From positions 73,829 to 137,828 of the forward strand of contig JBAZJY010000003.1 of NCBI GenBank assembly GCA_041651115.1: a stretch of DNA of 64,000 bases, read 5' to 3'. A program made the position numbers and the translations under genes. This document shows, piece after piece, positions 26,686-52,333 of the stretch (position 1 is the stretch's first letter; each line of letters opens with the position of its first letter). The notes below the pieces were generated by a model that saw nothing but the letters and a program-made list of their open reading frames with translations, was not told the DNA's origin and made no database searches. Source of the stretch: Candidatus Omnitrophota bacterium (GTDB lineage Bacteria; Omnitrophota; Gorgyraeia; Gygaellales; Profunditerraquicolaceae).

Positions 26686-27067
26686 TTAAAATTACTTTTA
26701 GTTTTCCGGAATTCAGCTCTGCCAGCTCAAATTCATCCGTTACTGCCAATGCCTTTTTAAGGCAGGAGTCCACGCACTGGCCGCAAAATATGCATTTACC
26801 AAGGTCTATCTCGGCAACGATCTTTTTATCCTCTGTTTGCCGGATGGTTATTGCCTTTGCCGGGCAGTCTCTCATGCATAATTTACAACCCACGCATTTT
26901 TCCGCAGAGAACTTGATCTTGCCGCGGGAGCCCTTGATCGCGCCGGATTTCACATAGGGATACCTGGTCGTAGCCGGTTTTTTAAACAATGAAAACAAAA
27001 CCGCCTTGATCATTTTTCCCGGCCTTCTCATTTTCATCTTGATTCCTTTTATCTTACTACGAACCAT
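26654..27067 (-). CDS. Hydrogenase 2x[4Fe-4S] ferredoxin subunit (NuoI/HycF/MbhN-like)
   Basis: Two CxxCxxCxxxCP motifs (CVGCKLCMRDCP, CIFCGQCVDSC). The true start is probably the internal Met at about 27013 (MIKAVLFSLFKKPATTRYP). Confidence 0.75.
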   Translation of the reverse strand: MVRSKIKGIKMKMRRPGKMIKAVLFSLFKKPATTRYPYVKSGAIKGSRGKIKFSAEKCVGCKLCMRDCPAKAITIRQTEDKKIVAEIDLGKCIFCGQCVDSCLKKALAVTDEFELAELNSGKLKVILNVAPKENPEK

Positions 27068-27990
27068 TTTACCGTCAGGTCAACGAGCACCTGTAAAAAT
27101 GCCAGCGGCGCAATATATTTCCAGCATAAATTAACCATCTGGTCTATGCGCAGCCGCGCCAACACTGTGCGGAATAAAGAAATTATACTCACGATCAGGA
27201 ATATCTTAACTAAAAAAAGGAGAAAACCGACAGCCGGGCCAAGGTCAAGCCCGAACGGCAGGAAAACCGCTGCCAAGAGGCTTGCGCCGACTATCATTTC
27301 TACGTCAATAGTAAGCCGGAACATCCCCAGCAGCCTCCCGCTATATTCTGTCAGGCTTCCGGCAACGATCTCGGTCTCCGCTTCAGGTATGTCAAACGGC
27401 CCTTTTTCCAGTTTACCCATTAGCGCGACTACGGAGATCGCAAAACCAAGGAGATTAAACGCCCAAAGCCCCGGGTGCCGGCTGTAAAAAACCGTGATCT
27501 CGCTTAATGTCCAGGTATTTGCCAGAAGCGCGGAAGCTAAAACGCTGCTCAATAACGGTATCTCGTAAGCAAATAACTGCGTCAATGAGCGCATAGATCC
27601 GATCGTAGAATAGACCGAACGCGAATACCAGCCTGCCAAAAACAAAGTCATTGTCGGGATGGTCAAAAGATAAAGCACGACGATAACATCGCCCTGAAAA
27701 GAAAACAAGGCTTGCGTTTTCCAGAGCGGTATATAGAGGAACGCCGTAACCGTTGAGGCAAAGGCGAATATCGGCATCAGCCTGAACGGCCGCGGGTCCG
27801 CTTCTTCGGGGATAAGGTCTTCTTTCCCTGCCAGCTTTATAAAATCCGCAAACGGCTGGAACCACGGCGGCCCGACCCTGTTTTGCATCCGCGCGTAAAC
27901 CTTGCGGTCGTAGAATTCAACAATAAACCCGAAGACGATCAAAAACAGCGCCCCGGGGAAAATAATGATCTCAAATAACGCCTTAAACAT
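27049..27990 (-). CDS. Hydrogenase membrane subunit (NuoH/HycD/MbhM-like)
   Basis: 313 aa with about 8 TM helices. The N-terminal E..DRK..AR.Q.R.GP motif (EFYDRKVYARMQNRVGPP) defines the complex-I subunit-1 family. Confidence 0.8.
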   Translation of the reverse strand: MFKALFEIIIFPGALFLIVFGFIVEFYDRKVYARMQNRVGPPWFQPFADFIKLAGKEDLIPEEADPRPFRLMPIFAFASTVTAFLYIPLWKTQALFSFQGDVIVVLYLLTIPTMTLFLAGWYSRSVYSTIGSMRSLTQLFAYEIPLLSSVLASALLANTWTLSEITVFYSRHPGLWAFNLLGFAISVVALMGKLEKGPFDIPEAETEIVAGSLTEYSGRLLGMFRLTIDVEMIVGASLLAAVFLPFGLDLGPAVGFLLFLVKIFLIVSIISLFRTVLARLRIDQMVNLCWKYIAPLAFLQVLVDLTVKWFVVR

Positions 27991-27993
27991 CGG

Positions 27994-29217
27994 TTAACCC
28001 GCTTTACTTTTTAGTTTTTTGTTCAACTTCGTAAAATCGATGCCCTGCCTGCTGTACCATTCTATGCCTTCTACGCGCAGGCTTTCCCAGGTAACGATCT
28101 TTCTGCCTTTTTTCTCATGGTTTTTAAGCGCGATCAGCCGGTCTGTGCAGGAGAAACAGGGATCGATCGCTGCCACAACAATAGGCATATCTGCCAGATA
28201 ACGGTCTTCAAGCATAAAAGCTACGGTTTGGATATTGGCAAGGGTAGGCGCCCTTACTTTTACCCTTTCGGGCTTATCCGTTCCGTTAGCCTTGACATAA
28301 TGCAGGTCCTCTCCGCGCGGCGCCTCATAGCGGCTTACTGCTTCGCCGGCAGGGATCTTGCGCGGCACTTTTACGGCGATCTCGCCGCCGGGAAGATTCT
28401 TTAAAACTTTTCGGATAATACTATAGCTTTCCATCAACTCGCCTAAACGCACGATGGTGCGGCCGTAAATATCATTATGGCTGTCCGTGATCACCTTAAA
28501 ATCGATTTCCGCGTAAGCAGCATACGGATCGTCTTTTCTCACATCCCTTGCCACGCCGGATGCGCGGGCAGTCGGGCCGACCGCACCTAAACGCAAGACA
28601 TCTTCCTTAGACATCACCCCAACCCCGGAAAGCCGCTTTATCAAAGTAGTTTCTCCGGTGGCTACCTCAATATAATACTTGGTCCTTTCTTCCAGGGTAT
28701 CCATTGCCTTAAGCATGTCCTTCACCTGCTCAGCTGAAATATCGCGCCTGACCCCGCCCAGACAATTTATGCCGTAATTCACGCGGTTACCCGTAAGCCC
28801 GGCAAGGATATCCATGACGATCTCGCGGTCGCTCCACGTATACATCAATAAGGTATCAAATCCAACTTCATGGCCTGCCACTCCCAGCCATAAAAGATGG
28901 CTGTGGATCCTTTCCAGCTCGCCTACCAGCGTGCGGATGTATTCCGCGCGCTTAGGGACACTGATGCCGACGATCTCTTCTACTGCCTGCGCAAAACAAG
29001 TGGAATGCGCGTGCGAACAAATGCCGCAGATGCGCTCAATAAGATAAAGGCCCTGAATATACGTCCTCTCTTCACAAGCCTTCTCAATGCCGCGGTGATT
29101 ATAGCCAAGCCGCACGCCTGCTTCCAATATTTTTTCCCCGCTTAAAAGCAGGCTGAAACTGGCCGGTTCCTTTAAAGCCGGGTGCTGCGGCCCAACGGGT
29201 ATTTTTATGTCATGCAT
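27994..29217 (-). CDS. [NiFe]-hydrogenase large subunit, group 4 (membrane-bound, energy-converting)
   Basis: 407 aa. N-terminal RxCGxCxxxH (RICGICSHAHS) and C-terminal DPCxxCxxR (DPCFSCTDR) are both present, so the NiFe-binding cysteines are retained. This distinguishes it from NuoD. Confidence 0.9.
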   Translation of the reverse strand: MHDIKIPVGPQHPALKEPASFSLLLSGEKILEAGVRLGYNHRGIEKACEERTYIQGLYLIERICGICSHAHSTCFAQAVEEIVGISVPKRAEYIRTLVGELERIHSHLLWLGVAGHEVGFDTLLMYTWSDREIVMDILAGLTGNRVNYGINCLGGVRRDISAEQVKDMLKAMDTLEERTKYYIEVATGETTLIKRLSGVGVMSKEDVLRLGAVGPTARASGVARDVRKDDPYAAYAEIDFKVITDSHNDIYGRTIVRLGELMESYSIIRKVLKNLPGGEIAVKVPRKIPAGEAVSRYEAPRGEDLHYVKANGTDKPERVKVRAPTLANIQTVAFMLEDRYLADMPIVVAAIDPCFSCTDRLIALKNHEKKGRKIVTWESLRVEGIEWYSRQGIDFTKLNKKLKSKAG

Positions 29218-29689
29218 TTTTACTGCCCTCCTGCAACATTTCTTTTTTCCAGTCTTTACGCAAGGGGTATTGGCCTTCAGGCCAATTATCCGGCAAAGGA
29301 TAACGCTTGCCTTTCTTAAGCCCTTCTACCTTTGTCCCCAATAGATCAACCAATTCTCTTTCATAAATTTCCGCGCCGGGAAAATAACTTGTTATTGTCT
29401 TTATAACCGGATCATTTTTGGCTACGCCGGTCTTAATGCTCAAGACAATCCCGTTTTCGCTGGACAAATGGTAAATAAATGAAAGTTTTTCGCCCTCGTC
29501 CATGCCGGTAATACCGGAAAGTATGCAAAAACCTAGAGCTTCTATCGCGTAGTCAAATACATTGAAGAATTTATCCGGAGAAACTTCGGCATAGATCCTC
29601 CTTTGCCTCTGGACCCTTATGCCATTTCCCAGAAAATTAAAATTCTTCAGCAATTCCTGCCGTATTCTTTCTTCTTCTGACATGTTCAC
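29210..29689 (-). CDS. Hydrogenase NuoC-like (30 kDa) subunit
   Basis: 159 aa. The central ERExxDxxG motif (ERELVDLLG) is shared by NuoC, the HycE N-terminus and MbhK. Confidence 0.7.
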   Translation of the reverse strand: MNMSEEERIRQELLKNFNFLGNGIRVQRQRRIYAEVSPDKFFNVFDYAIEALGFCILSGITGMDEGEKLSFIYHLSSENGIVLSIKTGVAKNDPVIKTITSYFPGAEIYERELVDLLGTKVEGLKKGKRYPLPDNWPEGQYPLRKDWKKEMLQEGSKNA

Positions 29690-30135
29690 TTTTTTACCGC
29701 TTCTTTTTCTTCCAGGCTTGCCAGCAGCTTTACTATCCCGTCAATTATTGCTTCCGGGCTTGCCGGGCATCCCGGGATATAGGCAGCCACGGGGATCACG
29801 GAGTCTATGCCGTGCTCAACATTATAACAGCCTTCAAAAACGCCTCCGGAAGCAGCGCAAGAGCCTACGGCAACCACAAGCTTGGGTTCAGGCATTTGCT
29901 CATAGATCCTGACCACCCTGTCGGCGGTCTGGCGGGTGATCGGCCCGGAACAGACAAGAATGTCCACGTGCCGGGGCGTAGCTTTTAACTGCACGCCAAA
30001 ACGCTCAAGGTCATAACGCGGAGTGAGCGCGGCAATGATCTCTATGTCGCAGGCATTGCAGGCGCCGGTATTAAAATGAAGTATCCACGGCGACTTCAAC
30101 CTTGACCAGTTTACCATTTTTTTGATCAATCCCAT
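29686..30135 (-). CDS. Hydrogenase small subunit (NuoB/MbhJ-like, [4Fe-4S] N2-type)
   Basis: 149 aa. The N-terminal region, GSCAASGG and GCPASP motifs carry the cysteines of the proximal cluster. Confidence 0.85.
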   Translation of the reverse strand: MGLIKKMVNWSRLKSPWILHFNTGACNACDIEIIAALTPRYDLERFGVQLKATPRHVDILVCSGPITRQTADRVVRIYEQMPEPKLVVAVGSCAASGGVFEGCYNVEHGIDSVIPVAAYIPGCPASPEAIIDGIVKLLASLEEKEAVKK

Positions 30136-30140
30136 TGCTG

Positions 30141-30476
30141 CTATCTCCTAAAAAGAATCACCAGCCCGGTGATCGCGCCGACAATATAAACCACGGCGAT
30201 AAAAAAAGAATCTATCGTTTCTATAGGCACGGTAGCGACGATCAAAGCGACTACGTGCAGGATAGTAAAGAAAAAGGCAAACGGGAAAAACTGCCCGTAG
30301 TTAACCTGTACCCTGTGTTCAGGCAGGTCTTCGCCGCAGGCATACGCCTTTCTTGAGCCGCTTTTTAAGACAGTGCTGCGCCGGAAGGCAAGCCTGGACA
30401 ATGAGCCGGAAAGGGTCAGGGTCAACCCGAGGATGATTATAAAAGCTATGGGAGGAAAAAGCAGCCATTCATACAT
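30141..30476 (-). CDS. Small membrane subunit (NuoA/MbhI-like)
   Basis: 111 aa with 3 TM helices. Its position immediately upstream of the NuoB-like gene matches the mbhI-mbhJ order. Confidence 0.4.
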   Translation of the reverse strand: MYEWLLFPPIAFIIILGLTLTLSGSLSRLAFRRSTVLKSGSRKAYACGEDLPEHRVQVNYGQFFPFAFFFTILHVVALIVATVPIETIDSFFIAVVYIVGAITGLVILFRR

Positions 30477-30484
30477 AACGATAC

Positions 30485-30805
30485 CTATCCCTTAAGGTTC
30501 CTGAGATTATCCACGTCCAGCGATTCATCGTGCCGGTAAACACTTAAGATCACGCCTCCGGCAACGACAATGAGCACAACTTCAATTACGATCATCGTGA
30601 TCACGAATGCCTGCACCAGCGGCTCCTGCTTAGTAATGTGGCCGATGACCACAAAAAGTAAGGTTACGCCTTTATTCAGGATCTCCAGGCCGATCAACAC
30701 CTTGATCATATTACGCGTCACCAGCATGCAGTAAACGCCGGTTGCGCAAAGCATGATTATAAAAATAACGAATGTCCAGAATAATACCAGAACATCACCA
30801 CTCAT
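30485..30805 (-). CDS. NuoK/MnhC-like membrane subunit
   Basis: 106 aa with 3 TM helices. The LIGLEILNKGVTLLFVVIG motif resembles NuoK/MrpC. Confidence 0.65.
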   Translation of the reverse strand: MSGDVLVLFWTFVIFIIMLCATGVYCMLVTRNMIKVLIGLEILNKGVTLLFVVIGHITKQEPLVQAFVITMIVIEVVLIVVAGGVILSVYRHDESLDVDNLRNLKG

Positions 30806-31292
30806 TGTCTTCTCTTTCTTTAAATAACATTACCGCGCCAAAACCTCCGGCAAGTAAGATAATGATCTGGCCGAAGAGGTCTAACTGCCGCAGATTCCAA
30901 AGCACGTGCCGGGGATCGGTCTCTACTGTCCGCTGCACAAAAATTATGGTGATCGGCAGCCCTACAAGAAATAAGGCCATTACCCCGGAACAGATTATCC
31001 ACAGCGGCAGGTAACGATAACGCTTCAAGCGCTCTTTTGTCACAGAGCTAAGCTGTTCTCCGGAAATCGGCTTAGTCAGGCCTATGGTGCTTAAGAATAT
31101 CACGGTGATCAGGCCGGTACATACGGAAAGCTCAAAAACCGCTGCCAATGGAGAATTAAAACGGAACATAAAAATGCTGACTATGGCGCTGACAACTGCC
31201 AGTCCGATAGCGGTCTTCAGCAGGCTCCTGACCATCACGCCCCAGACTGCCGCTACCACCATAATTACCAAAAGTGTTAAAATTAAGATCAT
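30795..31292 (-). CDS. NuoJ/MnhB-like membrane subunit
   Basis: 165 aa with 4-5 TM helices. It is located between the antiporter-like and NuoK-like genes. Confidence 0.4.
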   Translation of the reverse strand: MILILTLLVIMVVAAVWGVMVRSLLKTAIGLAVVSAIVSIFMFRFNSPLAAVFELSVCTGLITVIFLSTIGLTKPISGEQLSSVTKERLKRYRYLPLWIICSGVMALFLVGLPITIIFVQRTVETDPRHVLWNLRQLDLFGQIIILLAGGFGAVMLFKEREDNEW

Positions 31293-32722
31293 GGCAATAA
31301 AATTTGTTTTACCGGTTCAAACACAGACACGAATACCGCGGGGAAAAATAATCCCGCCATTATTGTGACCAATGCCAACGCTATAGAAACCAGCGAAAAA
31401 CCCAAACCTGCCTCTTTTACGCTTTCCAGGCCCGGCGCAAGCTTTCCAAAAAAAACTTTCCTTTGCATAATCAGCAGATAAGCCAAAGTAAGGATGCTTG
31501 CCAGGGCTGCTGCCAGCGCATAAAAATGCTGGCCAGCGCTCCACAGCGCGATGATAATGAGCAGCTTGCTCCAAAATCCGGACAAAGGCGGAATGCCGCT
31601 TGCGGAAAGAAAACCGATGATCGAAGTAACGGAAGTAACCGGCATCCTTGATGAAAGGCCTCCCAGATCATCCATTTCAGTCGTCCCTGCCTGTAAACCG
31701 ACTGCCGCAGAATTTACGAATAAAAGAGATTTGAACATTGAATGATTAAACAGGTGGAATACCGCAGCAATCACCCCAAGGCCGGTGCCGCTTCCTAATG
31801 CCAATATTATATAACCGACCTGGCTGATACTTGAATAAGCCAGCATCCGTTTAAAATCAGTTTGGCCCAAAGCTGCCAGCGCAGCGGTAATAATCGAAAC
31901 TAACCCTACGAATAAGAGCAACGCATTAAGCCCCGGGCTAAACCCGAAAACCCCGGTTACCAGCCTGATCAAAGTGTAAACGCCGCATACTTTTGTTACG
32001 ATCCCGGCCAATAATACCGATACTGCCGGCGGCGCGCTGGAATAAGCGTCCGGCAGCCAGCCGTGGAAAGGCATCAGTCCGCCCTTGATAAAAAGCCCGC
32101 AGATAAAAATCGCGATACTGAAAATAACAACATAATTATGCTTGGAATTCGCCAAGGCGCTCTGCAGCCCGGGAAAAGAAGTATCTCCGGAAGTAAATAA
32201 AAGCAGCGCGATGGAAGTAAGCATCATTATGGTCGCCACCGAAGAAAGAACCGTATATTTGAACGCGCCTTCAAGGCTGGCCCTGCCCCTGCGAAAAGCG
32301 ATCAGGATAAACGAAGATATCGCGGTGATCTCAAGGAATACGTATAATGAAAACATGTCTTTTGTCATCGCAATACCGTTCATGCCGATAAAAGCGATGA
32401 TCAGGACATTAATAAAATTAAACCTTTGCTTCTTATCGGTAAGGGTGTACCTGCCGATGATCAGGCTCACCAGGCAGACAGCCGCGATACAGAAAAGCAT
32501 GATCAGCGCCAGGCGATCCGCTCCAAGGTGGACCGTAAAGAATGAATTGATGCGGTCAAGCCCGGGATTATAAAAAAAGTAATTATGCATCAGCACAGCC
32601 AGGATCTGGAAGACAAACAACGCGGCAGCAGACCATAGCGCTATCCTGGTCATTTGGATGCCGAAGAAAAGATTAAAAAATATGATTTCCAGCAGCGGAA
32701 CCAAGATCAACAAAGAAGGCAT
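31289..32722 (-). CDS. Proton-conducting antiporter-like subunit (NuoM/MrpD family)
   Basis: 477 aa, polytopic. Conserved SSISQVGYI and FxGxxxxxLxxxxLP motifs of the NuoL/M/N-MrpA/D family. Confidence 0.8.
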   Translation of the reverse strand: MPSLLILVPLLEIIFFNLFFGIQMTRIALWSAAALFVFQILAVLMHNYFFYNPGLDRINSFFTVHLGADRLALIMLFCIAAVCLVSLIIGRYTLTDKKQRFNFINVLIIAFIGMNGIAMTKDMFSLYVFLEITAISSFILIAFRRGRASLEGAFKYTVLSSVATIMMLTSIALLLFTSGDTSFPGLQSALANSKHNYVVIFSIAIFICGLFIKGGLMPFHGWLPDAYSSAPPAVSVLLAGIVTKVCGVYTLIRLVTGVFGFSPGLNALLLFVGLVSIITAALAALGQTDFKRMLAYSSISQVGYIILALGSGTGLGVIAAVFHLFNHSMFKSLLFVNSAAVGLQAGTTEMDDLGGLSSRMPVTSVTSIIGFLSASGIPPLSGFWSKLLIIIALWSAGQHFYALAAALASILTLAYLLIMQRKVFFGKLAPGLESVKEAGLGFSLVSIALALVTIMAGLFFPAVFVSVFEPVKQILLP

Positions 32723-32741
32723 TGCTTATTCTTCTCCTAAG

Positions 32742-34574
32742 CTAAACCGATTTCAATAAAAATACCACTACCATCGCGGCGCCGGTAATGGCCCAGATAA
32801 CATAAAGAGAATAATTACCGTTATGCGCTTTTCTTATTCCATAACTGAACGCAAAGGCAAGCTTTACCGCAAATACGTCATACATCCAGTCTATTGTCCG
32901 GTCAAAACACCATGCGGCATGCGCAAATATCCTGACTAATCCCATGCCGATATTATAGGGATCAAAATACCCGCGCTGCGCTTTATCATATATCCAGCCC
33001 AAGAGCGGGGCATAATGAATATGGTCTACCGCCCTTAAGCCGCTTCCGGTTTTCCTTACTCCGTATAAATGATCCAGCAGCGCAGCGATCAAGACGGCGA
33101 TCGTAACCGCAAAGAGAAAAACATTCACGTGCAATCCGCTGAAATCATGGCCCCCGAGCCTCTCCTGCCCGATTACCGGCTGGATAAGATAGCGTAACGG
33201 AATAAAATTCAGCAGGCCGAAAATAACGCAGGTCGCGGCAACCACAAGCATCGGCGCCAACATGCGCAGCGGCGCTTCCTTTACTGCCTTGTTTTTCTCA
33301 TTTAACCTGCCCAGGAACGCGGCATGCCCAAGTTTTAAGAATGAAGCCGCGGTAAGAAAAGACCCGCCAACCGCAGCCAGGTAAAATATCCAGCCTCTTT
33401 CCAGCGCCCCGCCATAAATCAGCTCTTTGGAGAAAAACCCGTTAAACGGCGGCACGCCGGATATTGATAAGGCGGCTATAGTAAAACAAATAAAAGTTAT
33501 CGGCATCTTCAGCCTCAAGCCTCCGAGGCTCTCTAAGTCTGTGCTGCCGGCTTGTTTCTCCACGGAACCCGCAGAGAGGAACAAACAGCTTTTATATAAA
33601 GCGTTATTAATCAAATGGAATAGGCCGCCGACAATGCCTGCCGGGACTAAAGTGCCGATGCCCAAAATCATATAGCCTACCTGGCTGACCGCGTGGTAAG
33701 AAAGCAGGCGTTTAAAATCTTTCTGCACCAGGGCCATCATTACCGCAAACAAGATCGTCACTGACCCAACGATCATCAGCAGGCTGCTTGCCCATGAACC
33801 GGCAGCAAGCTTAAACATATCCAAAGATATCCGGGCAAGAAAATAAATACCTAGTAATTTTTCCAGCGATGCCGGCAGGATCGCCATGAACGGCAATGGC
33901 GCGTTTTCCGCTGCGTCAGGGATCCAGCTATGGAAAGGCATTGATCCGGCTTTAGAAATTGCTCCGATCACCAGGAGAATAAAGGCAACTCCGGCAAGGC
34001 CGCTTAAAGGAAGGCTGATCCTGGAGATCGTCAGCGTTCCCGCGAGATGGCCGGTCATGATAATACCCAGCATCAGGCAAAAGTCTGAAGCCCCGGCAAT
34101 GATCAGGGCCTTTGTTGCCGCCTTAAACGCATTTCTGCCGCCTATGGCGATCAGGCCAAAAAGAGTAAGCAGCAGGCCTTCCCAGAAAAACAACATCAAC
34201 AAAAGATTATCCGCCAGTAAAGCGGCATTAATAAAAGCGAGTGTTATCAGGATGTAGGCATAAAACTGGTTCAGGTAATCCCTGCCGCGCATAAATACGC
34301 TTGAATATAGAATGACCAGGAATCCGAATACTGCCGCGGCAAGAATCATGAACGAACTGAAATTATAGAGCCTTAGAGAAAATTCTCCTGCCTGCCCCAA
34401 TAAAGGTAAAGAATAAACCGCCCGGCTGTTTAAAAATAATACTGCCAAGAGAAGATTTACCAACCCGGCAAACAAAGCAGTTACTTCCCTTAAGCCGGCC
34501 AGCCTGCGCATCAACAGGCACAATACGCCTGCCGATAAAGGCGCTAATATAAATAACAACAGTATCTTTTCCAT
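32742..34574 (-). CDS. Proton-conducting antiporter-like subunit (NuoL/MrpA family), longest of three
   Basis: 610 aa. Antiporter-family motifs (LSYHAVSQVGYMILGIG, GSMPFHSWIPDA) plus a C-terminal extension typical of NuoL/MrpA. Confidence 0.8.
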   Translation of the reverse strand: MEKILLLFILAPLSAGVLCLLMRRLAGLREVTALFAGLVNLLLAVLFLNSRAVYSLPLLGQAGEFSLRLYNFSSFMILAAAVFGFLVILYSSVFMRGRDYLNQFYAYILITLAFINAALLADNLLLMLFFWEGLLLTLFGLIAIGGRNAFKAATKALIIAGASDFCLMLGIIMTGHLAGTLTISRISLPLSGLAGVAFILLVIGAISKAGSMPFHSWIPDAAENAPLPFMAILPASLEKLLGIYFLARISLDMFKLAAGSWASSLLMIVGSVTILFAVMMALVQKDFKRLLSYHAVSQVGYMILGIGTLVPAGIVGGLFHLINNALYKSCLFLSAGSVEKQAGSTDLESLGGLRLKMPITFICFTIAALSISGVPPFNGFFSKELIYGGALERGWIFYLAAVGGSFLTAASFLKLGHAAFLGRLNEKNKAVKEAPLRMLAPMLVVAATCVIFGLLNFIPLRYLIQPVIGQERLGGHDFSGLHVNVFLFAVTIAVLIAALLDHLYGVRKTGSGLRAVDHIHYAPLLGWIYDKAQRGYFDPYNIGMGLVRIFAHAAWCFDRTIDWMYDVFAVKLAFAFSYGIRKAHNGNYSLYVIWAITGAAMVVVFLLKSV

Positions 34575-34582
34575 AGCTTATT

Positions 34583-36022
34583 TTACCCGCCGGTTATTTG
34601 CCGGACGATCACTTCAGCGAAACCAAAAGGATACTTAATGAAAATGCCGGCGGCAAGGGATAACAGCGCCAGAAGCGCTACGCTTGCGGTCATTAATGAA
34701 GAACCCTCTCTCTGGCTTTGCGCTTTAGGCTCGCCGAGAAATACCATATTAAAGGCCCTTAAAAGATATAATACCGTTAAAACTGCTCCGGCTAAAAACA
34801 CAAAAGCGCTGGAATACTGCTTTGCCCCCACCGCTCCGGCAAAAACCATATATTTGCTCCAGAAACCGCCCAACGGCGGCAACCCCATCACGGAAAACGC
34901 GCAAAGTAAAAAAGATGCGGCGGTAACCGGCATCGTATGGATAAGGCCGCCAAGCTCTGTAATATTTTTAGTCTTTGCCTTTTGTTCAACTATGCCTGCG
35001 CAAAGAAACAAACCTGCTTTTGACAGGCCGTGCATCAAGATATATAAAAGCCCGCCGATGATCCCGATATCATTGCCGGTAGAGAGCCCAAAAAAGATAA
35101 AACCGATCTGACTGACCGTAGAATAGGCAATGATGCGTTTTAGGTCGGTTTCAATAAGCGCTGCGCCCGCGCAAACAAGCGCGCTTATCGCGGCAACTGC
35201 CGCTACGTCAGAATACCACAGCGCCGATAAAGTGATCGTGGCGATAAAAAGCCGGGCAAAGGCATAAACACCGATCTTAACTAATAACGCCGCGTGCAGC
35301 AGCGCAGTAACCGGCGAGGGCGCCACGCCTGCATCCGGCAGCCAGGTGTGGAACGGTAAAGTGGCGGATTTGGAAAATATACCGATAAGGATCAGCAATA
35401 CGGCAAAACCGGGTGCGTTACCGGCTTTAAAACTTTCTTTTACCACTGCCAGGTCAAACGACCCGCATTGCTGGTATATGCCGATAAACCCGATGAGCAT
35501 TGCCAGCGCGCCAAAGCCGGTTACCAAAAAGGATTTATCCGCTTTTAAAACATGCGTTTTTTCCCGGAAAAACCCGATCAAGCGCCAGCTGGTAACTGCC
35601 GTAAGCTCCCAGAATATGTACATAAATATCAAGTTAGCCGAAAAGATCAAACCCATCATCGCGCCGAGGAACAGCGCCACCATAGAATAATATTCGTTCT
35701 GGTTTTCATAATGGCTGATATAGCTGAAAGAATACAGGATGATCACCGCGCTGATCAGCCCGGAAACGCAGCCCATGAATACAGCCAGGCTGTCTGCGCT
35801 AAATGCGGTATTGAACCACGGGGCAAGGCTTCCGGGAATGATTACTATTTTTGCGGATGAAGCCAGGGGCAGCATTGTTAACAGTAAGGCAAGCGGGACC
35901 AAAACAAAAAGCAGCGCCGCCAGGTTCCTTAATGCCGCAGAGACCCTTCCTGCTATCGGCAGAATAAAAGCCCCGGCAAGCGGGATGAAAATAATGCTTA
36001 AAAGCATTGCTCCATAATTCAT
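34583..36022 (-). CDS. Proton-conducting antiporter-like subunit (NuoN/MrpD family)
   Basis: 479 aa. The AYSTVSQIGFIFFG and LPFHTWLPDA motifs. Confidence 0.8.
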   Translation of the reverse strand: MNYGAMLLSIIFIPLAGAFILPIAGRVSAALRNLAALLFVLVPLALLLTMLPLASSAKIVIIPGSLAPWFNTAFSADSLAVFMGCVSGLISAVIILYSFSYISHYENQNEYYSMVALFLGAMMGLIFSANLIFMYIFWELTAVTSWRLIGFFREKTHVLKADKSFLVTGFGALAMLIGFIGIYQQCGSFDLAVVKESFKAGNAPGFAVLLILIGIFSKSATLPFHTWLPDAGVAPSPVTALLHAALLVKIGVYAFARLFIATITLSALWYSDVAAVAAISALVCAGAALIETDLKRIIAYSTVSQIGFIFFGLSTGNDIGIIGGLLYILMHGLSKAGLFLCAGIVEQKAKTKNITELGGLIHTMPVTAASFLLCAFSVMGLPPLGGFWSKYMVFAGAVGAKQYSSAFVFLAGAVLTVLYLLRAFNMVFLGEPKAQSQREGSSLMTASVALLALLSLAAGIFIKYPFGFAEVIVRQITGG

Positions 36023-36260: not shown

Positions 36261-37022
36261 TTATTCCCCGGTGCCGTGGACGATCCTGAGGACCTCTTCT
36301 GCTTCTTCCAGCTTTTTCTTAAGCGCCTCGTATTCCTTTCTCGGCACAGAATCCTGCGGCTCAATCTTCGGCGCAGCAGCCGCCTCTTGCGCGGCCTTAT
36401 CTATTTCTTTCCTGTATTGTACGATTTGCGTTTCCAGCATTTTGATCTTATTTAAAGCGTCCTCGTGATCTTTTTTCAACGCCTCTTCGCCTTTATTCTG
36501 TTGATTTTGCATGTCCGTCTTTAAAGAAGCTGTTTCTGTTTCTAACGCCTTTACTTTTTCCAGCGCGGCAACAAGCTTATTGTTTATTTCCTCGTGTTCT
36601 TTGCGCGAAACCTGCTCTTTAGACTGTTGCTGCTGCTTGGCAAGCTGTTCCTCTAATGCCGTAACTTTTTCTTTGGCCGCGGCCAATTCATTGCTTAGGC
36701 CGGGATCCGGGATGGATGCCTTTTCCAGTTCCCTGCTTTTTGCCAGCATTTCTTCCTTTAACTGCGTATTCTCCGCCTTAAGCCGGCTGCTCTCGTCACT
36801 CATCTGGTTGTTCTCTTTTTTTAACTGGTCAACATCCAGCTTGAGCTGCTGCAATTCGGCGTTATTAACCGGGGCCTTCGGTACTGCCGCGACATGCGGA
36901 AAGCGCAGGCCAGTTGGCTCTGCGCGTTCTTTTTCGCCAGCTCCCTCCTGCCGGTTCGGCAAAAACGCGTATACCGCAAGGGCTATGCCTACGAGAAAAA
37001 TAGCTGAAAGAAGAATAATCAT
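36261..37022 (-). CDS. Membrane-anchored coiled-coil protein, paralogous to the N-terminus of the EF-G fusion ORF
   Basis: 253 aa. The N-terminal anchor MIILLSAIFLVGIALAVYAFLP (compare [22 protein letters not shown] at 49845) is followed by about 200 aa of heptad-rich, E/K/Q-rich sequence. Confidence 0.5.
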   Translation of the reverse strand: MIILLSAIFLVGIALAVYAFLPNRQEGAGEKERAEPTGLRFPHVAAVPKAPVNNAELQQLKLDVDQLKKENNQMSDESSRLKAENTQLKEEMLAKSRELEKASIPDPGLSNELAAAKEKVTALEEQLAKQQQQSKEQVSRKEHEEINNKLVAALEKVKALETETASLKTDMQNQQNKGEEALKKDHEDALNKIKMLETQIVQYRKEIDKAAQEAAAAPKIEPQDSVPRKEYEALKKKLEEAEEVLRIVHGTGE

Positions 37023-45850: not shown

Positions 45851-46792
45851 CTAAATGGTTATGTCGACACGGAATTCCGAATACATGCCGCTGTCCACGC
45901 TCACTTTGCCTAAACTGTCGCGATACTGCATCCTGCGGCCGAATACCCCGCCTACGGAAACAGAACTCTCAATATGCTTATTAAATTTATAGTTAATCCC
46001 TGCGCCTCCGCGGTAGGATTTATACTCTAAAACGACATTTTTTCTGCCGTCCTTATCCACTTCAAATTCGTCGCAGAGCATGCCGCCTTCGGCAAATAAA
46101 GTGATCTTGTCATTAAGCATATAGTTTATACTCGGGTTATCCGGGATGATATTGAATAATAATTTATCATTTGGCTTATAAATAAACCCCAGTATCGGGC
46201 AGACCTTATTGCGGTAATCCGGAAAAGTTGCCACCCCGGCGACAAACGTCCATTTCTTATCCGGCTGGTAGATCATAAAAGTATGTATCGGCATACGGAA
46301 AGCCGATGACCGGGCATTCCAATTCTCCGAGCGAAAAGAAGGATATAGGCTTAAGCGGAAATATGTTTTATCAATGCCGAAAAACGGAAGCGTTGTTTGA
46401 ATACCGGCGATCAAGCTGGTCAGATGCGACGGAAGCTTAACTTCAGCGGAATTATTGATACTGATATAGCCGGTTTCAAAAGAAAGTTCCATCGGCAGTT
46501 TACCGAAAGCCTTTAGATTATAGCTGCATTCATTGCCCGACTCGATGATTCCGACCTTGCCTGCCATGGCATCTACGCGGCGCTGCGGCATGTACCTTAC
46601 AAAGGTATCTGCCTCAAAAGGCATTTCTTTCTCTTCTTCCGGCTCTTCGCTGATCAATGATTCCAGGCGCTGGCGATATTCCTTCTGAGCGCCGCTATCA
46701 GATTCTTCAGCGGCAATAAGCGCGCATGGACAAATAAAAACGGAAATAATAATAGCGCACGCCAACCCTACCCATTTCTTATTTTGTAACAT
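45851..46792 (-). CDS. Secreted hypothetical protein, possibly an outer-membrane beta-barrel
   Basis: 313 aa. Signal peptide (VGLACAIIISVFICPCALIAAEE), alternating hydrophobic beta-strand-like segments and a C-terminal aromatic residue context (EFRVDITI). Confidence 0.4.
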   Translation of the reverse strand: MLQNKKWVGLACAIIISVFICPCALIAAEESDSGAQKEYRQRLESLISEEPEEEKEMPFEADTFVRYMPQRRVDAMAGKVGIIESGNECSYNLKAFGKLPMELSFETGYISINNSAEVKLPSHLTSLIAGIQTTLPFFGIDKTYFRLSLYPSFRSENWNARSSAFRMPIHTFMIYQPDKKWTFVAGVATFPDYRNKVCPILGFIYKPNDKLLFNIIPDNPSINYMLNDKITLFAEGGMLCDEFEVDKDGRKNVVLEYKSYRGGAGINYKFNKHIESSVSVGGVFGRRMQYRDSLGKVSVDSGMYSEFRVDITI

Positions 46793-46806: not shown

Positions 46807-49800
46807 TTAAGCATTCTCTTTTCTCTTCTTTTTCTCTTCCAATATCTTCGCGGCGATCTCAAAAGGAACCTGCATATATTTTTCAAAATGCATGGACGCG
46901 TTTGCCCTGCCGCTGGACAAAGAACGGAAATTCGTGGCATAGCCGAACATTTCTGCCAGCGGCGCTTCCGCATCAATGATCTTTTGTTTGCCCTTGGTGT
47001 CCATGCCAAGGATCTTACCGCGGCAGGAACAGATGTATCCGACAACGGCATTGACATATTCTTCGGGAGTAACGACTTCCAACGACATATATGGCTCAAG
47101 CAAAACCGGATCTGCCCGCATAAACGTCTCTTTAAAACAGCCGATCGCCGCCAGCTTAAACGCCAGTTCCGAAGAATCAACATCGTGAAAAGAACCGTCG
47201 GTAAGGTTAACTTTAATATTTACCACCGGATACCCGGCGTAAGCTCCGTTACGCATTGCCTCAACAACGCCTTTTTCTACTGCCGGGATGAACGACCGGG
47301 GGATCGCACCGCCCTTGATGCTGTTAATAAATTCAAATTCTTCTCCGGGTTCAGCCGGGATCAATTCCATCACTACGTGGCCGTATTGGCCGCGTCCGCC
47401 TGACTGCTTGATGTGCTTATATTCGCCCGAGACTTTCTTTAGTATGGTTTCCCGGTAAGCGACCTTGGGTTTGCCGACAACCGCGTCAACGCCGAATTCT
47501 ACTTTTAGCCGGTCGACAATAATCTCAAGATGCAGCTCGCCCATGCCGGTAAGGATCGTCTCTTTCGTTTCTTCGTCGGTTTCTACCTTGAATGTCGGGT
47601 CCTCTTCGGTAAGCTTTGCCAGGCCTTTGCCAAGCTTGTCCTGGTCTGCCTTGCCGGCCGGAGTAATACTAAGCGAAACTACCGGCACAGGGAACTCGAT
47701 CGCTTCCAGGAGCACCGGATGCTCCGGATCGCAAAGCGTATCGCCGGTTACAGTATTGCCGAGGCCGATCACTGCCACGATCTCTCCGGCAAGCGCCCTA
47801 TCCCTTGCTTCACGCTGATTAGCATGCATCTGCAATATCCTGCCGATGCGTTCCTTTTTATTTTTCGTAACATTAAAGACATAGGATCCGGTATCAAGGA
47901 ATCCGGAGTAGATCCTTAAATAAACAAGCTTGCCCATATGCGGGTCTGACTGGATCTTAAACGCCAGCGCGGAAAACGGCTCGCCGGTATCGGGCTTACG
48001 GCTGATCACCTTTTGCGCGTCATTTGGATCATGGCCGTCTACCGGAGGGACATCTAACGGCGAAGGCAAATAAGCGACAACCGCGTCCAAGAGTTTCTGC
48101 ACGCCCTTGTTCTTGAAAGACGCGCCGCAAAGCACCGGCACCATTTTATTGGCAACCGTTCCCTTGCGAATAGCCTGGGATAATTCTTCCGCGGTCAGCG
48201 AATCCGCGGACTCAAGGTATTTTTTCATCAGGGTATCGTCAAAGGCAGCCACGCGTTCAACCATGATATGCCGGTATTTGGCAGCAGCTTCCTTGTAATC
48301 CGCGGGGATCTCTTCAACCCTGTAACTCTTGCCCAGCGATTCGTCTTCATAATAATAAGCCTTCATTTCCAAAAGATCTACTACTCCCTGGAAATTCTCT
48401 TCCGCGCCGATGGGGATTTCAAGCGGAATGACGTTACCGCCCAGCTCCTCTTCGATCCCTTTGATCACCGCGAAAAAATCCGCGCCCATGCGGTCCATTT
48501 TATTGATAAAGGCGATCTTGGGGACGTTATATTTATTGGACTGATGCCAGACAGTTTCCGATTGCGGCTCGACTCCGCCTACGGCGCAAAATACCGCTAC
48601 TGCCCCGTCTAATACGCGCAGGCTGCGCTCGACCTCCGCGGTAAAATCAACGTGGCCGGGCGTATCGATGATATTAATCCGGTAATCCTTCCAGTAACAG
48701 GTAGTTGCCGCGGAAGTAATGGTAATGCCGCGCTCCTGCTCCTGCTTCATCCAATCCATCTGTGCCTTGCCTTCATGGACCTCGCCGATCTTGTGCGACC
48801 TGCCGGTATAAAAAAGAATACGTTCTGTTGTGGTAGTCTTACCGGCGTCGATATGCGCCATGATCCCGATATTGCGCACCATATTTAAATCTACTTTAGG
48901 AGCAGGCGCAGCTTCTTTGGGTGTTTCCGGGGCTGGCGGCTCGGACTCCGGAGTTTCAGGCTGCGGTTCAGGCGCAGATGGTTCAGGTTGCGGCTCCGGT
49001 ACAGCTGGCTCAGGCTGCGGTTCAGGTACGGTTAATTCAGGCTGCGGGGCTTCTTCCGGAACGGGCGCCGGGGTTTCTTCCGGAGTTGGCTGCGCGGTTT
49101 CTTCCTGCGCTGGTTGCGGAAGCTCTTCTTGCGCAGGCTGCGGCTGCGCCTTAAACTTCATCAGCTCATCAAATAATGCCTGCGCTTTATTCTCCTGCGC
49201 TTCCAGTTCCTTTTCCAGATCGCTGTATTCTTCGTTAAGCTTGACAAATTCCTGCTTCGGGACCCACTCGCTGGTTTCCTGCTGTTTTTTAAATACGGTG
49301 ATCGTATTAAGATGGTCTTTTAATTCTTTACTGAATTCATCAACCTGAAGCTTCAAGCGCTGGTTTTCTTCGTCTAACTTTTTATTTTTTTCTTCCAACG
49401 ACTGGTATTTTAAGTCAGCTTCGCGCATCTGCCGCGTTAAATCCACATTTTTGGCAAATTCATCCTGCAGGTCTTTTTCCTTTTTTATAAATCTTTTTTC
49501 CAGTTCATCAAATTGCGCTTTAAGTTTTACCGCCAACTCTTCTTCTTTAGCAACCCAGTCCTGCCTCCTGGCAAGTTCTGCTTTAAGGTCAGCTTCTCTT
49601 TTTAAAGCTGCGTCCAGTTCCGGACGAAGATTTTCCTGGGCGGGCTTTTGCTCTTGTGTATCCGGCAGAACAACGGCAGGCAACTCTTCTTTGTGTTTGC
49701 CAAACGAAAAGACTGGGGCCGGCTTAACCGGCTTGGGAGTTTTTGGGGGTTTTTTTGCCTTTTTGGAAGATGTATCTGACGGCAACAGGGCATAAGTTGC

Positions 49801-49845
49801 CAAGCCTACGCCGCAGAGGAATAGCGCCGCAAGTAATATGATCAT
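46807..49845 (-). CDS. fusA: Elongation factor G with a 320-aa N-terminal extension: TM anchor, coiled coil and Pro/Glu-rich linker
   Basis: 1012-aa continuous ORF. Residues ~325-1012 are canonical EF-G (G1 [10 protein letters not shown]3 DTPGHVDF, G4 NKMD, domain IV HDVDSSE). Residues 1-22 form a hydrophobic anchor, ~60-260 are heptad coiled coil, and ~262-320 are the (PEPQPEP)n repeat. Confidence 0.85.
48955..49060 (-). repeat. Imperfect tandem repeat of about 24-27 nt inside the EF-G-fusion ORF, encoding the (PEPQPEPxxP)n linker
   Basis: Plus-strand units ggctgcggttcaggcgcagatggttcaggttgcggctccggtacagctggctcaggctgcggttcaggtacgg. These translate on the minus strand to [24 protein letters not shown]. 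Confidence 0.6.
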
Positions 49846-49855
49846 ATGCTAGTGC

Positions 49856-52333
49856 CTAGACCGGAACATTCCATATTTCTTTGGCGTATTCCTTTATTGT
49901 CCGGTCGCTGGAAAATTTTCCGGACTTTGCAACGTTGATGATCGATTTTTTGGTCCACGCGGTCTTATCGTGGTAAAGCGCTGAAACTTTCTCTTGCACC
50001 GCGCAATATTGGTCAAAATCCGCGCAGATAAAATACGGATCCGAAAAAATAATGCTGTCCACAATCGGGCCAAAGAGGTTATAGTCTACGGGAGAAAAGA
50101 AATTGCTCTTGATCAGCTGTATTACCTCTTTTAACACCGGCGAGCGCTCAATATATTGCTGCGGGTCATAGCCGCCCTGCCTTATTTTTTCTATCTCTTC
50201 CACGGTCAGCCCGAAAATGAATATGTTATCATTACCCACAGCCTCCGCGATCTCTATGTTAGCTCCGTCAAAGGTGCCCACGGTAAGCGCGCCGTTCATC
50301 ATAAATTTCATGCACCCCGTGCCTGAGGCTTCGGTACCGGCAGTGGATATCTGCTCGGAAAGTTCGGATGCCGGAAATATTTTTTCCGCCAGCGACACGC
50401 GGTAATTTTCCAGAAAAACCACCTTCAACCGGTCATTTATATCTTTATCTTTATTGACTACGCCGGCAATGCTATTGATGAATTTAATGATCAGCTTGGC
50501 CATAAAATAACCCGGGGCGGCCTTGCCGCTGACAATGAACGTGCGCGGGATAATCGCGGCATGCGGGTTCTTTTTTATCCTTAAATACTGCGCGATGATA
50601 AAAAGGCCGAACAAAAGCTGGCGCTTATACTCATGGATCCTTTTTATGTGCACGTCAAACATTGATTCCGGATGCACGGAAATACCGGTTGTTTTATGGA
50701 TATAATCCACCAGGGCTTTTTTGTTTACTTTTTTAACCTCCTGCCAGCGCTTGCGAAAGGCATCGTCCTCTGTCAGGGGAAGCAGCTTTTCCAGCTCGAA
50801 CAGGTCGGATATCCACTTGTCCCCGATCGTATCCGAAATCAGGCCGGAAAGCCGGATATTGGATTTTTGCAGCCACCGTCGCTGGGTGATGCCGTTAGTC
50901 TTATTATTGAACCGTTCGGGAAAAAATTCAAAGAAATCTTTAAAGAGCTGCGTCTTTAAAAGTTCGCTGTGCAGGCGGGAAACCCCGTTAACCGAATGCG
51001 AGCCGATCAGAGAAAGAAAAGCCATACGGATCCGCTTGGGGTCGCCCTCTTCAATGATCGACATCCTGCGGATGCGGTCGGTATCGCCGGGGAAACGCGT
51101 GGCCACTTCGTGCAGAAAACGCATGTTTATTTCATAGATCAATTGCAGGTGGCGCGGCAGCAGTTTTTCAAATAAATTCACCTTCCATGACTCCAGGGCC
51201 TCCGGCATCACGGTGTGATTGGTATAGGCGAACGTGCGGACCGTGATATCCCAAGCCGTATCCCAATCAAGGTTTTCTTCGTCTATAAGGATGCGCATCA
51301 GCTCGACGATTGCCAGGGATGGGTGCGTATCGTTAAGCTGTATCGCCACCTTATCGGGGAAAGAACGGAAATCGGAATTCTCCATCTTGAACCGGCGGAT
51401 AATATCGGCAATGGAAGCGGCAGTAAAGAAATATTCCTGCTTTAAACGCAGCTCCCTGCCCTGGCTGACACTGTCATTGGGATAAAGGACTTTGGAGATA
51501 TTTTCCGAAAATACTTTATTATATACTGCGTGCTCATAATCGCCGTCGTTAAAATATTTCAGGTCAAACTCTTCGGTACTGCGCGCCGACCAAAGGCGCA
51601 GGGTATTAACGACATCGCTCTTAAACCCTGCTACCGGGATATCATAAGGGCTTGCCAATACATCTTCCGTATCCACCCATTTTACGCGCAGCTTCCCCTT
51701 ACCGTCGTTAAACATATAGGTATGGCCGTTAAAATGCACCTTTACCGTATATTCCGGCCGGGCAAATTCCCAGGGGCTGCCGCGCCGCAGCCATTCATCG
51801 GGAAATTCAATCTGATAACCGTTGATTATCCGTTGGTTAAATATCCCGTATTCATATCTTATGCCGTAGCCGTGCGCGGGAATGCCCATCGTAGCCATTG
51901 AATCAAGAAAACATGCCGCCAGCCTGCCCAAACCGCCGTTACCCAAGCCGGCGTCAGGCTCGCAATCTCGTATTTCCTCAAGGTTAAAACCGAGGTCTTC
52001 CATCGCCTCCCGCACCTCATCCCAAAGCCCTAAATTCAGGATATTTGTGCCTAAAAGCCTGCCGATAAGGAATTCAAGCGAAAAGTAATAGACCCTTTTC
52101 ACGTTATCGCGATGGTATCTTTGCTGGGTGGCGATCCAGCGCTCAATCAGCCTGTCCCTGATGCCGATTGCCAGCGCCCAGAAATCATCGGTAAGAGTAG
52201 CAGTATACTGATCTTTGGCAAGGGTATATTCCCGGTTGGCAAGGAAAGAGCGCTCCACTCCTTCCTTGGTCATGTCTTTATGAATGCTTACCCAACTGGT
52301 ATCGTTACGGTTATCCATCTTTACCCGCTCCAC
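49856..52333 (-). CDS. glgP: Glycogen/alpha-glucan phosphorylase
   Basis: 825 aa. The PLP-site motif EASGTGCMKFMMNGA is diagnostic. Confidence 0.95.
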   Translation of the reverse strand: MERVKMDNRNDTSWVSIHKDMTKEGVERSFLANREYTLAKDQYTATLTDDFWALAIGIRDRLIERWIATQQRYHRDNVKRVYYFSLEFLIGRLLGTNILNLGLWDEVREAMEDLGFNLEEIRDCEPDAGLGNGGLGRLAACFLDSMATMGIPAHGYGIRYEYGIFNQRIINGYQIEFPDEWLRRGSPWEFARPEYTVKVHFNGHTYMFNDGKGKLRVKWVDTEDVLASPYDIPVAGFKSDVVNTLRLWSARSTEEFDLKYFNDGDYEHAVYNKVFSENISKVLYPNDSVSQGRELRLKQEYFFTAASIADIIRRFKMENSDFRSFPDKVAIQLNDTHPSLAIVELMRILIDEENLDWDTAWDITVRTFAYTNHTVMPEALESWKVNLFEKLLPRHLQLIYEINMRFLHEVATRFPGDTDRIRRMSIIEEGDPKRIRMAFLSLIGSHSVNGVSRLHSELLKTQLFKDFFEFFPERFNNKTNGITQRRWLQKSNIRLSGLISDTIGDKWISDLFELEKLLPLTEDDAFRKRWQEVKKVNKKALVDYIHKTTGISVHPESMFDVHIKRIHEYKRQLLFGLFIIAQYLRIKKNPHAAIIPRTFIVSGKAAPGYFMAKLIIKFINSIAGVVNKDKDINDRLKVVFLENYRVSLAEKIFPASELSEQISTAGTEASGTGCMKFMMNGALTVGTFDGANIEIAEAVGNDNIFIFGLTVEEIEKIRQGGYDPQQYIERSPVLKEVIQLIKSNFFSPVDYNLFGPIVDSIIFSDPYFICADFDQYCAVQEKVSALYHDKTAWTKKSIINVAKSGKFSSDRTIKEYAKEIWNVPV

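Follow-up and report, generated by a model that had tools for sequence, protein, structure and literature searches.

Canonical elongation factor G fused to a predicted membrane-anchored coiled-coil module in Omnitrophota

Elongation factor G (EF-G) is the textbook example of a freely diffusing factor, which binds the ribosome and leaves it again at each codon. The gene described here lies in a 64,000-nt stretch of a Candidatus Omnitrophota genome (GenBank assembly GCA_041651115.1, contig JBAZJY010000003.1, positions 73,829 to 137,828 of the forward strand; hereafter the window) and encodes an EF-G of 1012 amino acids (aa), designated tethered EF-G, in which a predicted transmembrane (TM) helix, a coiled coil and a linker precede the translocase. 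Compared with canonical EF-G (FusA; Thermus thermophilus 1DAR/4V5F and Escherichia coli 4V7D), residues ~314–1012 are alike, with five domains and all motifs, whereas ~313 extra N-terminal residues form the anchor, the coiled coil and an acidic leash, and the gene is not found in the rpsL-rpsG-fusA-tuf (str) context. The EF-G family itself is known; what is novel is that canonical EF-G is fused, lineage-wide, to a membrane coiled-coil module which is itself new. Full-text literature searches for a membrane-anchored EF-G, or for the EF-G architecture of Omnitrophota, found no description of either, in agreement with the initial annotation of this DNA, which was made from the sequence alone and knew of no EF-G built in this way.

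Pseudomonas aeruginosa has two canonical EF-G copies, EF-G1A and EF-G1B (PMC3832671). Together with the EF-G1/EF-G2 pairs of mycobacteria, mitochondria and Bacteroides, these copies are a precedent for an additional EF-G gene lying outside the str operon, the members of such pairs dividing translocation from recycling or stress functions. Those paralogues are soluble and carry no added domains, whereas tethered EF-G, a non-str copy as well, is of the canonical type, not EF-G2-like, and membrane-tethered by prediction; its coexistence with a str copy is one that we infer.

In its layout, tethered EF-G is like ZipA, in which an N-out/C-in TM helix, a charged region and a long Pro-rich linker carry a cytoplasmic head holding the GTPase FtsZ at the membrane. 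However, ZipA binds FtsZ non-covalently, whereas tethered EF-G has the GTPase in its own chain; moreover, ZipA is without a long heptad stalk and has no sequence relationship to tethered EF-G (no Pfam match). FtsY, with its acidic N-terminal extension for membrane targeting, and LepA/EF4 are translation GTPases found at the membrane or stored on it. Their association is peripheral and reversible (a true TM helix is present in FtsY of a few lineages only), in contrast to the predicted anchoring of tethered EF-G, and neither of them is the translocase or has a coiled-coil stalk. The principle of an N-terminal TM helix and a coiled coil tethering an enzyme of the RNA machinery to the membrane is shared with RNase Y, whose gene lies downstream, a few genes away, in the conserved locus of Omnitrophota; the enzyme is, however, a different one, its stalk is not homologous, and RNase Y is widespread, whereas the module has been found only in Omnitrophota. 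TonB and TolA also combine an N-terminal TM helix, a long helical or (Glu-Pro)n/(Lys-Pro)n spacer and a C-terminal functional domain, but their topology is the opposite one, with spacer and head in the periplasm, and tethered EF-G has neither a TonB_C nor a TolA domain nor any similarity to these proteins. Searches of the extension against Pfam, NCBIfam and PDB profiles gave no match to ZipA_C, TonB_C, TolA or any anchor or linker.

Architecture of the tethered EF-G gene

The gene is one uninterrupted open reading frame (ORF) of 1012 codons, as had been described in the initial annotation; it has an ATG start and is located at 46807..49845 of the minus strand. An in-frame TAG sits two codons 5' of the TM-encoding ATG, so that the ORF cannot run further upstream. 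The features of the gene, followed by a paralogue of its N-terminal module, are listed below with the evidence for each in brackets (AF2, AlphaFold2; TRF, Tandem Repeats Finder; SD, Shine-Dalgarno).

46807..49845, minus strand: whole gene, 1012-aa tethered EF-G comprising TM helix, basic stretch, coiled coil, Glu/Pro linker and EF-G (single ORF)
49780..49845, minus strand: residues 1–22, predicted N-terminal TM signal-anchor helix (hydropathy, AF2 helix 2–20, charge bias)
49660..49779, minus strand: residues 23–62, Lys/Pro-rich basic juxtamembrane segment, predicted to be disordered (AF2)
49270..49659, minus strand: residues 63–192, uninterrupted 130-residue heptad coiled-coil helix of ~19 nm (AF2, periodicity)
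49255..49269, minus strand: residues 193–197, invariant E-W-x-P-K kink motif joining two helices (alignments, AF2)
49147..49257, minus strand: residues 197–233, second helix, EFxKLNEEYxxLEKELE (AF2, alignments)
48907..49146, minus strand: residues 234–313, Glu/Pro/Ala/Lys-rich disordered linker (TRF, AF2)
48880..48882, minus strand: Met322, internal ATG at the canonical EF-G N-terminus, not conserved as a start (alignment, SD test)
48061..48879, minus strand: residues 323–595, EF-G G domain with G' insert (PF00009, GTP_EFTU, 224 bits)
47728..47979, minus strand: residues 623–706, EF-G domain II (PF22042, EF-G_D2, and PF03144, GTP_EFTU_D2)
47470..47694, minus strand: residues 718–792, EF-G domain III (PF14492, EFG_III, 110 bits)
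47113..47469, minus strand: residues 793–911, EF-G domain IV with tip loops SGGRGQYGH and HDVDSSE (PF03764, EFG_IV, 154 bits)
46852..47106, minus strand: residues 914–998, EF-G domain V (PF00679, EFG_C, 88 bits)
36261..37022, minus strand: 253-aa protein, a distant paralogue of the TM-coiled-coil module that stands alone (hmmsearch)

Judged from its sequence, the core is a canonical EF-G in which no catalytic or ribosome-contacting motif is disrupted, which upholds the earlier description of it as complete and apparently catalytically competent. It scored 870 bits with T. thermophilus EF-G and 859 bits with E. coli EF-G, as compared with 588 bits for mitochondrial EF-G1, 390 bits for T. thermophilus EF-G-2 (1WDT) and 234 bits for TetM. 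The TIGR00484 equivalog model was matched over positions 9–690 of 691 at 1049.2 bits (cut-off 659.4), while the EF-G2 models failed (NF009377, 498 with a cut-off of 890; NF058620, 494 with a cut-off of 1000) and the cut-off of the tet_protect model NF012153 was not reached either (387 of 775), i.e. the protein is no ribosomal protection protein of the Tet(M)/Tet(O) type. The five domains follow in the order G(+G')-II-III-IV-V, all Pfam domains being above cut-off, and the G1 (AHIDAGKT), G3 (DTPGH with the catalytic histidine) and G4 (NKMD) motifs as well as the tip loops of domain IV are present and invariant in 18 aligned relatives. The fusion point corresponds to the normal N-terminus of EF-G, since Arg324 aligns to residue 12 of T. 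thermophilus EF-G. Among 29 species the median pairwise identity was 76.6 % for the EF-G core, 74 % for PheS, 78 % for RarA and 45 % for the module; relative conservation was tried as a test between a paralogue and a sole copy and was rejected as not discriminating.

The N-terminal 22 residues, previously regarded as a hydrophobic anchor, have a mean Kyte-Doolittle value of 2.41 over 19 residues and were modelled as a helix. The AF2 run with the N-terminal alignment placed helices at residues 2–20, 63–192 and 197–233, with disorder at 21–62 and a break at 193–196, the long helix having a predicted local distance difference test (pLDDT) score of 94–98. A separate full-length model, of low confidence (pLDDT 61), had the same layout, with residues 232–319 disordered and with the module not docked on EF-G. 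Residues 23–62, which represent the Lys/Pro-rich stretch noted earlier behind the anchor, have a pLDDT of 40–57 and are without secondary structure, poorly conserved and always basic. In the long helix, a 3.5-residue period dominates the conserved hydrophobic positions (power 2.54; next best 0.35) and keeps one register over residues 63–188, which indicates a true coiled coil, presumably oligomeric. The heptad coiled coil of the initial annotation is thus borne out by both the model and the periodicity, whereas its length has to be reduced from about 200 aa to about 170 aa.

The near-invariant or invariant columns of the long helix are W97, E129, F130, K132 and N133. Residues E193, W194 and K197 of the EWxPK motif are invariant in both alignments A1 and A2, the helix break of the AF2 model falls exactly at this motif, and the second helix contributes the invariant F200, L203, N204, E206 and E211. 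The linker is indeed a tandem repeat at the DNA level, as had been noticed before, TRF having found a 27-bp unit repeated 3.4 times (48955–49047) and a 24-bp unit repeated 3.3 times (49040–49118). Its residues 234–313 have a pLDDT of 29–49, and in the family the linker length is 81 aa at the median (49–162), with a composition of 25 % Glu, 17 % Pro, 11 % Ala and 11 % Lys and no conserved sequence. The extension gave no known domain with Pfam, NCBIfam or PDB profiles, but only coiled-coil noise below the cut-off (ATG16, E = 0.005; SMC, E ~ 1e-5).

According to the positive-inside rule, the basic flank of a TM helix stays in the cytoplasm. Family-wide, the flank preceding the TM helix has a median of 2 residues and a net charge of -0.15, as against +2.67 for the 25 residues that follow it, so that an N-out/C-in topology is predicted for the module, with the bulk of the protein in the cytoplasm. 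In one relative (P0053, 1172 aa), the coiled-coil module is duplicated internally ahead of EF-G, with two RxxW...K copies, and the length of the stalk can therefore vary by duplication of the whole module. The architecture, i.e. TM helix, coiled coil, linker and EF-G in one polypeptide, is solid as far as the sequence goes; the topology, oligomerisation, paralogy and function of tethered EF-G are what we infer from it.

Conservation of the fusion and the stand-alone module

A search with the full protein covered 5.8 billion clusters, and the 120 best matches were analysed. All of them are 975–1172 aa long and 59–68 % identical to the query at 91–100 % query coverage, and assemblies from JGI, ENA, NCBI and Logan are represented among them. 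Whether orthologues carry the extension was a question raised with the initial annotation; they do so in all 120 cases, with 285–482 aa preceding the EF-G core, and a hydrophobic N-terminal 19-mer (Kyte-Doolittle value of at least 1.6) is present in 110 of them. The extension is conserved in its sequence, not in composition alone, as seen at W97 and in the blocks ELQxEFxKNVDL and SEWVPKxEFxKLNEEYxxLEKELE. A scan of GTDB with the N-terminal alignment only, taking one genome per species, matched 129 species, from which 80 loci (designated by L numbers) were kept. Nearly all of these are labelled Candidatus Omnitrophota, the few names "uncultured Planctomycetales" and the single Margulisiibacteriota being taken as loose labels of the submitters. 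In 69 of the 80 loci a single ORF comprises both module and EF-G, and the upstream part is a separate gene in only 11 species; the genuine in-frame fusion proposed earlier, yielding a membrane-anchored EF-G, is supported by these counts. On this comparative sequence evidence, the fusion has been inherited vertically across most Omnitrophota, a phylum of uncultured, nano-sized cells.

Under the name "elongation factor G [Candidatus Omnitrophota]", NCBI has 19 entries of 681–718 aa that seemed at first to be unextended. Eight of them (seven with DNA among the loci, and P0278, corresponding to L082) are suffixes of an ORF of ~1000 aa, one (P0281, corresponding to L081) is a frameshifted fusion, the remaining ten being untraced; the entries of ~700 aa were rejected as proof of a separate EF-G gene. 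The starts annotated by NCBI often fall on leucine codons, e.g. "MEKTRNIGI" where the ORF reads "LEKTRNIGI". Shortened annotations of this kind were found on contigs of metagenome-assembled genomes (MAGs) at L023, L024, L046, L047, L049, L058, L062 and L082, the ~900 nt upstream being left without annotation or called as a small hypothetical gene. Because the ORF is annotated as an EF-G of ~700 aa, the architecture is largely hidden in those GenBank protein sets, and any use of Omnitrophota EF-G as a marker gene or in orthology studies should allow for it. The only relative with module (314 aa) and EF-G (711 aa) in different frames is L081 (9100–12136), a locus on an ENA contig with a 44-nt overlap between the two. 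An A8 homopolymer (gcAAAAAAAAgagg) is the site of the shift, which is probably an assembly indel, a true frameshift or a slippery site being less likely.

The module without EF-G occurs in the other 11 of the 80 species. Nine of them form one clade, with proteins of 256–349 aa, the others being L006 (285 aa) and L010 (232 aa). In the nine-species clade the usual pheS-pheT-rarA synteny is kept exactly, with the module alone in place of the fusion. L010 shares the synteny of the window itself, glgP-[X]-outer-membrane protein (OMP)-PGI-UvrD, its glgP being 78 % identical to that of the window, and its protein consists of the module only and ends right after helix 2. In a neighbour-joining tree of PheS+PheT, rooted at the midpoint with no outgroup, the split clade is nested in a group with eight fused species supported by 100 % bootstrap; bootstrap support is 78 % for the monophyly of the split clade and 77 % for the L014 group as its sister. 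Under midpoint rooting, the EF-G part would have been lost secondarily in the split clade and the module retained.

A profile search of 1.84 billion representatives yielded 354 proteins at E ≤ 1e-3. Many stand-alone relatives of ~210–235 aa keep the TM helix, the tryptophan and the invariant W-V-x-K-x-E, and all those bearing an organism name are Omnitrophota or Omnitrophica. The family features, namely the TM helix, the basic stretch, the heptad coiled coil with W97 and the [E]W-V/I-x-K-x-E-F/Y kink, were all found. The module is an autonomous family, so far found only in Omnitrophota and apparently specific to them. The contexts of the distant stand-alone genes vary, these being located before aroA, overlapping groES or after a gene for a TPR protein, and for that reason they permit no functional inference. 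At L085 (10001–11043), the gene of a distant stand-alone relative of 230 aa shares 4 nt with the start of groES (Cpn10), pointing to translational coupling with the chaperonin gene in that lineage.

The stand-alone paralogue in the window (36261–37022) was retrieved by hmmsearch at E = 1e-14 with the profile of alignment A3 and at E = 1e-9 with that of alignment A2. The TM helix of this paralogue (MIILLSAIFLVGIALAVYAFLP) hardly differs from that of tethered EF-G, and it has a separate conserved C-terminus (...KEYEALKKKLEEAEEVLRIVHG, AEEVLRIVHG) common to L010 9884–11128 and L065 6440–6961. These proteins may belong together as a small family of membrane coiled-coil proteins that co-assemble.

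Accessory copy, sole copy and other explanations

Tethered EF-G is likely to be an accessory copy beside an ordinary str-operon EF-G. EF-G is essential, the EF-G part was lost with the module kept in at least three lineages on the midpoint-rooted reading, and no unextended EF-G of at least 80 % identity for the window's clade appeared in the database matches. A second copy is favoured because of these observations, since the lineages that kept the module without the EF-G part must get their EF-G from elsewhere. A preprint on 176 complete Omnitrophota genomes describes operons with the contiguous order S12-S7-EF-G-EF-Tu-S10-L3 on several of the complete chromosomes and at 51 loci (10.64898/2026.06.07.730766). 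The view of the initial annotation that the gene may be an EF-G paralogue gains indirect support from the repeated loss and from these operons and is weakened by the failure to find a second EF-G within ±10 kb. As to the number of copies, the annotation table of Seymour et al. gives presence or absence only, the supplements of a limonene-enrichment metaproteome contain no EF-G entry, and a scan of viral contigs for str-operon-type Omnitrophota EF-G on mobile elements found nothing.

The favoured account as a whole, in which a tethered accessory EF-G acts near the membrane, is put forward as narrowly probable. Translation would begin at the TM-encoding ATG, and the helix would insert as a signal anchor, leaving an N-terminus of 0–9 residues outside and the stalk, the leash and EF-G in the cytoplasm. 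The predicted heptad stalk would probably oligomerise, with two or more EF-G heads per anchor, each carried by a rigid stalk of ~20–25 nm and ~120 flexible residues. The protein would coexist with the ordinary str-operon EF-G, and the tether may hold translocation at the membrane. Its job, the weakest step of the account, would be ordinary GTP-dependent translocation and/or ribosome recycling for a membrane-adjacent ribosome pool, for example translocon-docked ribosomes making membrane proteins, secreted proteins and the giant surface proteins characteristic of the phylum, and the module would act as a scaffold in its own right. As for the geometry, the stalk would measure ~19 nm (130 aa × 0.15 nm) and helix 2 would add 5.5 nm, while the ~120 flexible residues would contribute ~10–15 nm typically and up to ~40 nm when extended; the head should thus reach ~35 nm typically and ~65 nm at the maximum.

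A canonical EF-G that is anchored permanently and kept in most of a phylum would represent an unexpected spatial organisation of translation and would offer a handle on how ultra-small cells position their ribosomes. It bears on whether the membrane-docked ribosomes that make giant secreted proteins are served by an elongation factor of their own, and it raises the role of a phylum-specific family of coiled-coil membrane proteins.

Several points weigh against this account. If the PheS+PheT tree were rooted on the stem of the split clade, the fusion would be a single gain and there would be no repeated loss. No second EF-G was found within ±10 kb of any of the 80 loci, and both the housekeeping-like conservation and the pass with TIGR00484 would be just as expected of a sole EF-G. 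Membrane localisation, topology and oligomeric state of the protein are predictions, as are its N-terminus and intact mass, and the link to giant secreted proteins is speculation. Furthermore, Omnitrophota cells are about 0.2 µm across (PMC10066038). With a leash of 35–65 nm and a cell radius of ~100 nm, the heads would reach ~75–95 % of the volume, and because the leash would cover most of the cytoplasm, membrane-restricted translation may not be the point of the tether.

Were tethered EF-G the sole EF-G, it would carry out every translocation step in the fusion-bearing Omnitrophota. Such a role would suit the canonical core (1049 bits with TIGR00484; 870 bits with T. thermophilus EF-G), which is conserved like a housekeeping gene, the position of the gene at the end of the translation cluster (thrS-)infC-rpmI-rplT-pheST, and the result that no unextended close relative was found, ten of the 19 entries of ~700 aa being untraced; in cells of ~0.2 µm the reach of the leash would also be sufficient. 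We nevertheless regard it as rather unlikely, given that at least three lineages dropped the EF-G part and kept the module with no close unextended EF-G visible, and that EF-G has to cycle on and off the ribosome at every codon, for which a tether would be a kinetic burden. The S12-S7-EF-G-EF-Tu operons reported from several complete chromosomes and from 51 loci argue in the same direction (10.64898/2026.06.07.730766). If it were true, a phylum of ~0.2-µm cells would run all translocation and recycling via a membrane-anchored factor on an oligomeric stalk, and its translation would in effect be membrane-organised, as in mitochondria.

A cleaved precursor is a still less probable alternative to the tethered accessory copy. 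In that case one chain would be made and cut in the linker into a soluble EF-G and a membrane module, the fusion serving co-expression or stoichiometry. The module does function alone in other lineages, the linker is disordered, variable and exposed, and EF-G homology starts near the normal N-terminus (Arg324 against Thermus residue 12), all of which would be compatible with processing. Yet the linker contains no conserved cleavage motif, nor any conserved sequence at all, no protease gene is consistently linked to the locus, and the fusion has been kept over deep divergences although mere adjacency would give co-expression.

Internal initiation near the junction of linker and EF-G, yielding free EF-G with the long form minor or absent, is very unlikely. 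It might be suspected from the ATG and GTG at codons 322 and 323 of the window's gene, from the EF-G of ~700 aa annotated by PGAP in many MAGs and from the separate frames of L081; the PGAP starts, however, hit leucine and other codons of a continuous ORF, and the L081 shift lies in the A8 run and is unique. The initial annotation had noted that the internal methionine has no SD sequence and had considered independent initiation at MVRNIGI improbable. Both statements are supported, as the SD duplex upstream of Met322 amounts to only -1.8 kcal/mol and a methionine occupies the canonical EF-G start in 4 of the 120 relatives, the residue there being mostly Lys, Arg, Leu or Asn. In a survey of 70 loci for ATG, GTG or TTG within 15 codons before the core, 44 had no such codon and an internal start codon with an SD sequence was found in five, which is the chance level. 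At the TM-encoding start, an SD sequence with ΔG ≤ -4 was found in 61 % of loci, as compared with 46 % of genes generally and 25 % of random positions. No promoter-like site was found on the coding strand of the linker.

Export of the coiled coil and EF-G behind a cleavable signal peptide, as a moonlighting surface EF-G, is highly improbable. Moonlighting surface EF-Tu and EF-G have been reported in other bacteria and the N-terminus of the protein is hydrophobic, but there is no positive n-region, the basic cluster follows the hydrophobic core so that the C-terminal part is predicted to be cytoplasmic, and the catalytic motifs are strictly conserved although neither GTP nor ribosomes are available outside the cell. 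An artefact, be it misassembly, a chimeric contig or a sequencing frameshift joining two genes, is hardly credible and was rejected on comparative data, for although the linker is repetitive in its DNA and such regions are prone to assembly errors, the same ORF is present in independent JGI, ENA, NCBI and Logan assemblies, in more than 100 protein clusters and in 69 species representatives, on contigs of up to 1.87 Mb.

Gene order and the rest of the window

The tethered EF-G gene is preceded by glgP (49856–52333; Pfam Phosphorylase, 1116 bits), 10 nt past the stop codon of which it starts, and is followed by a gene for a predicted OMP with a weak DUF6268-like match (45851–46792), so that the flanks given in the initial annotation, glgP and a beta-barrel-like protein, proved to be right. 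The gaps between the three genes are 10 and 14 nt. A strong intrinsic-terminator-like hairpin (45824–45794, minus strand; 13-bp stem with 6 G-C pairs) is located just after the OMP gene, and since no terminator-like site lies before it on the coding strand between the genes, glgP, the tethered fusA and the OMP gene probably form one transcription unit.

The rpsL-rpsG-fusA-tuf location is typical of EF-G but not strictly defining, and the tethered gene lies elsewhere, as stated earlier: tblastn with E. coli S12 and EF-Tu as queries against 1.25 Mb of Omnitrophota loci found neither RpsL nor EF-Tu within ±10 kb of the gene, be it in the window or at any of the 80 loci taken from GTDB. The usual order, seen in L005, L048, L081, L082 and about 40 other loci, is (thrS-infC-rpmI-)rplT-(trkA-trkA-trkH)-pheS-pheT-rarA-[module+/-EF-G]-secreted cyclophilin-uvrD-DUF5981-iscU-5-FTHF cyclo-ligase (MTHFS)-rny-ymdB. 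In the clade of the window (the window, L001 and L010), the gene has been relocated to glgP-[gene]-DUF6268-like OMP-(GT2)-PGI-uvrD.

Two further regions of the window deserve mention. A 737-aa protein with a CHAT (caspase-like) domain fused to many TPR repeats is encoded at 19290–21503 (minus strand), an architecture known from systems of the conflict or defence type. Genes for complex-I/Mbh/Mrp-like membrane subunits are clustered at 27049–36022 (minus strand; NADHdh, a 49-kDa/NiFe-hydrogenase-like protein and three Proton_antipo_M proteins), and this cluster coincides with a marked shift in AT skew (+0.19 to +0.22 at 30–36 kb), which probably reflects the composition of the hydrophobic membrane proteins.

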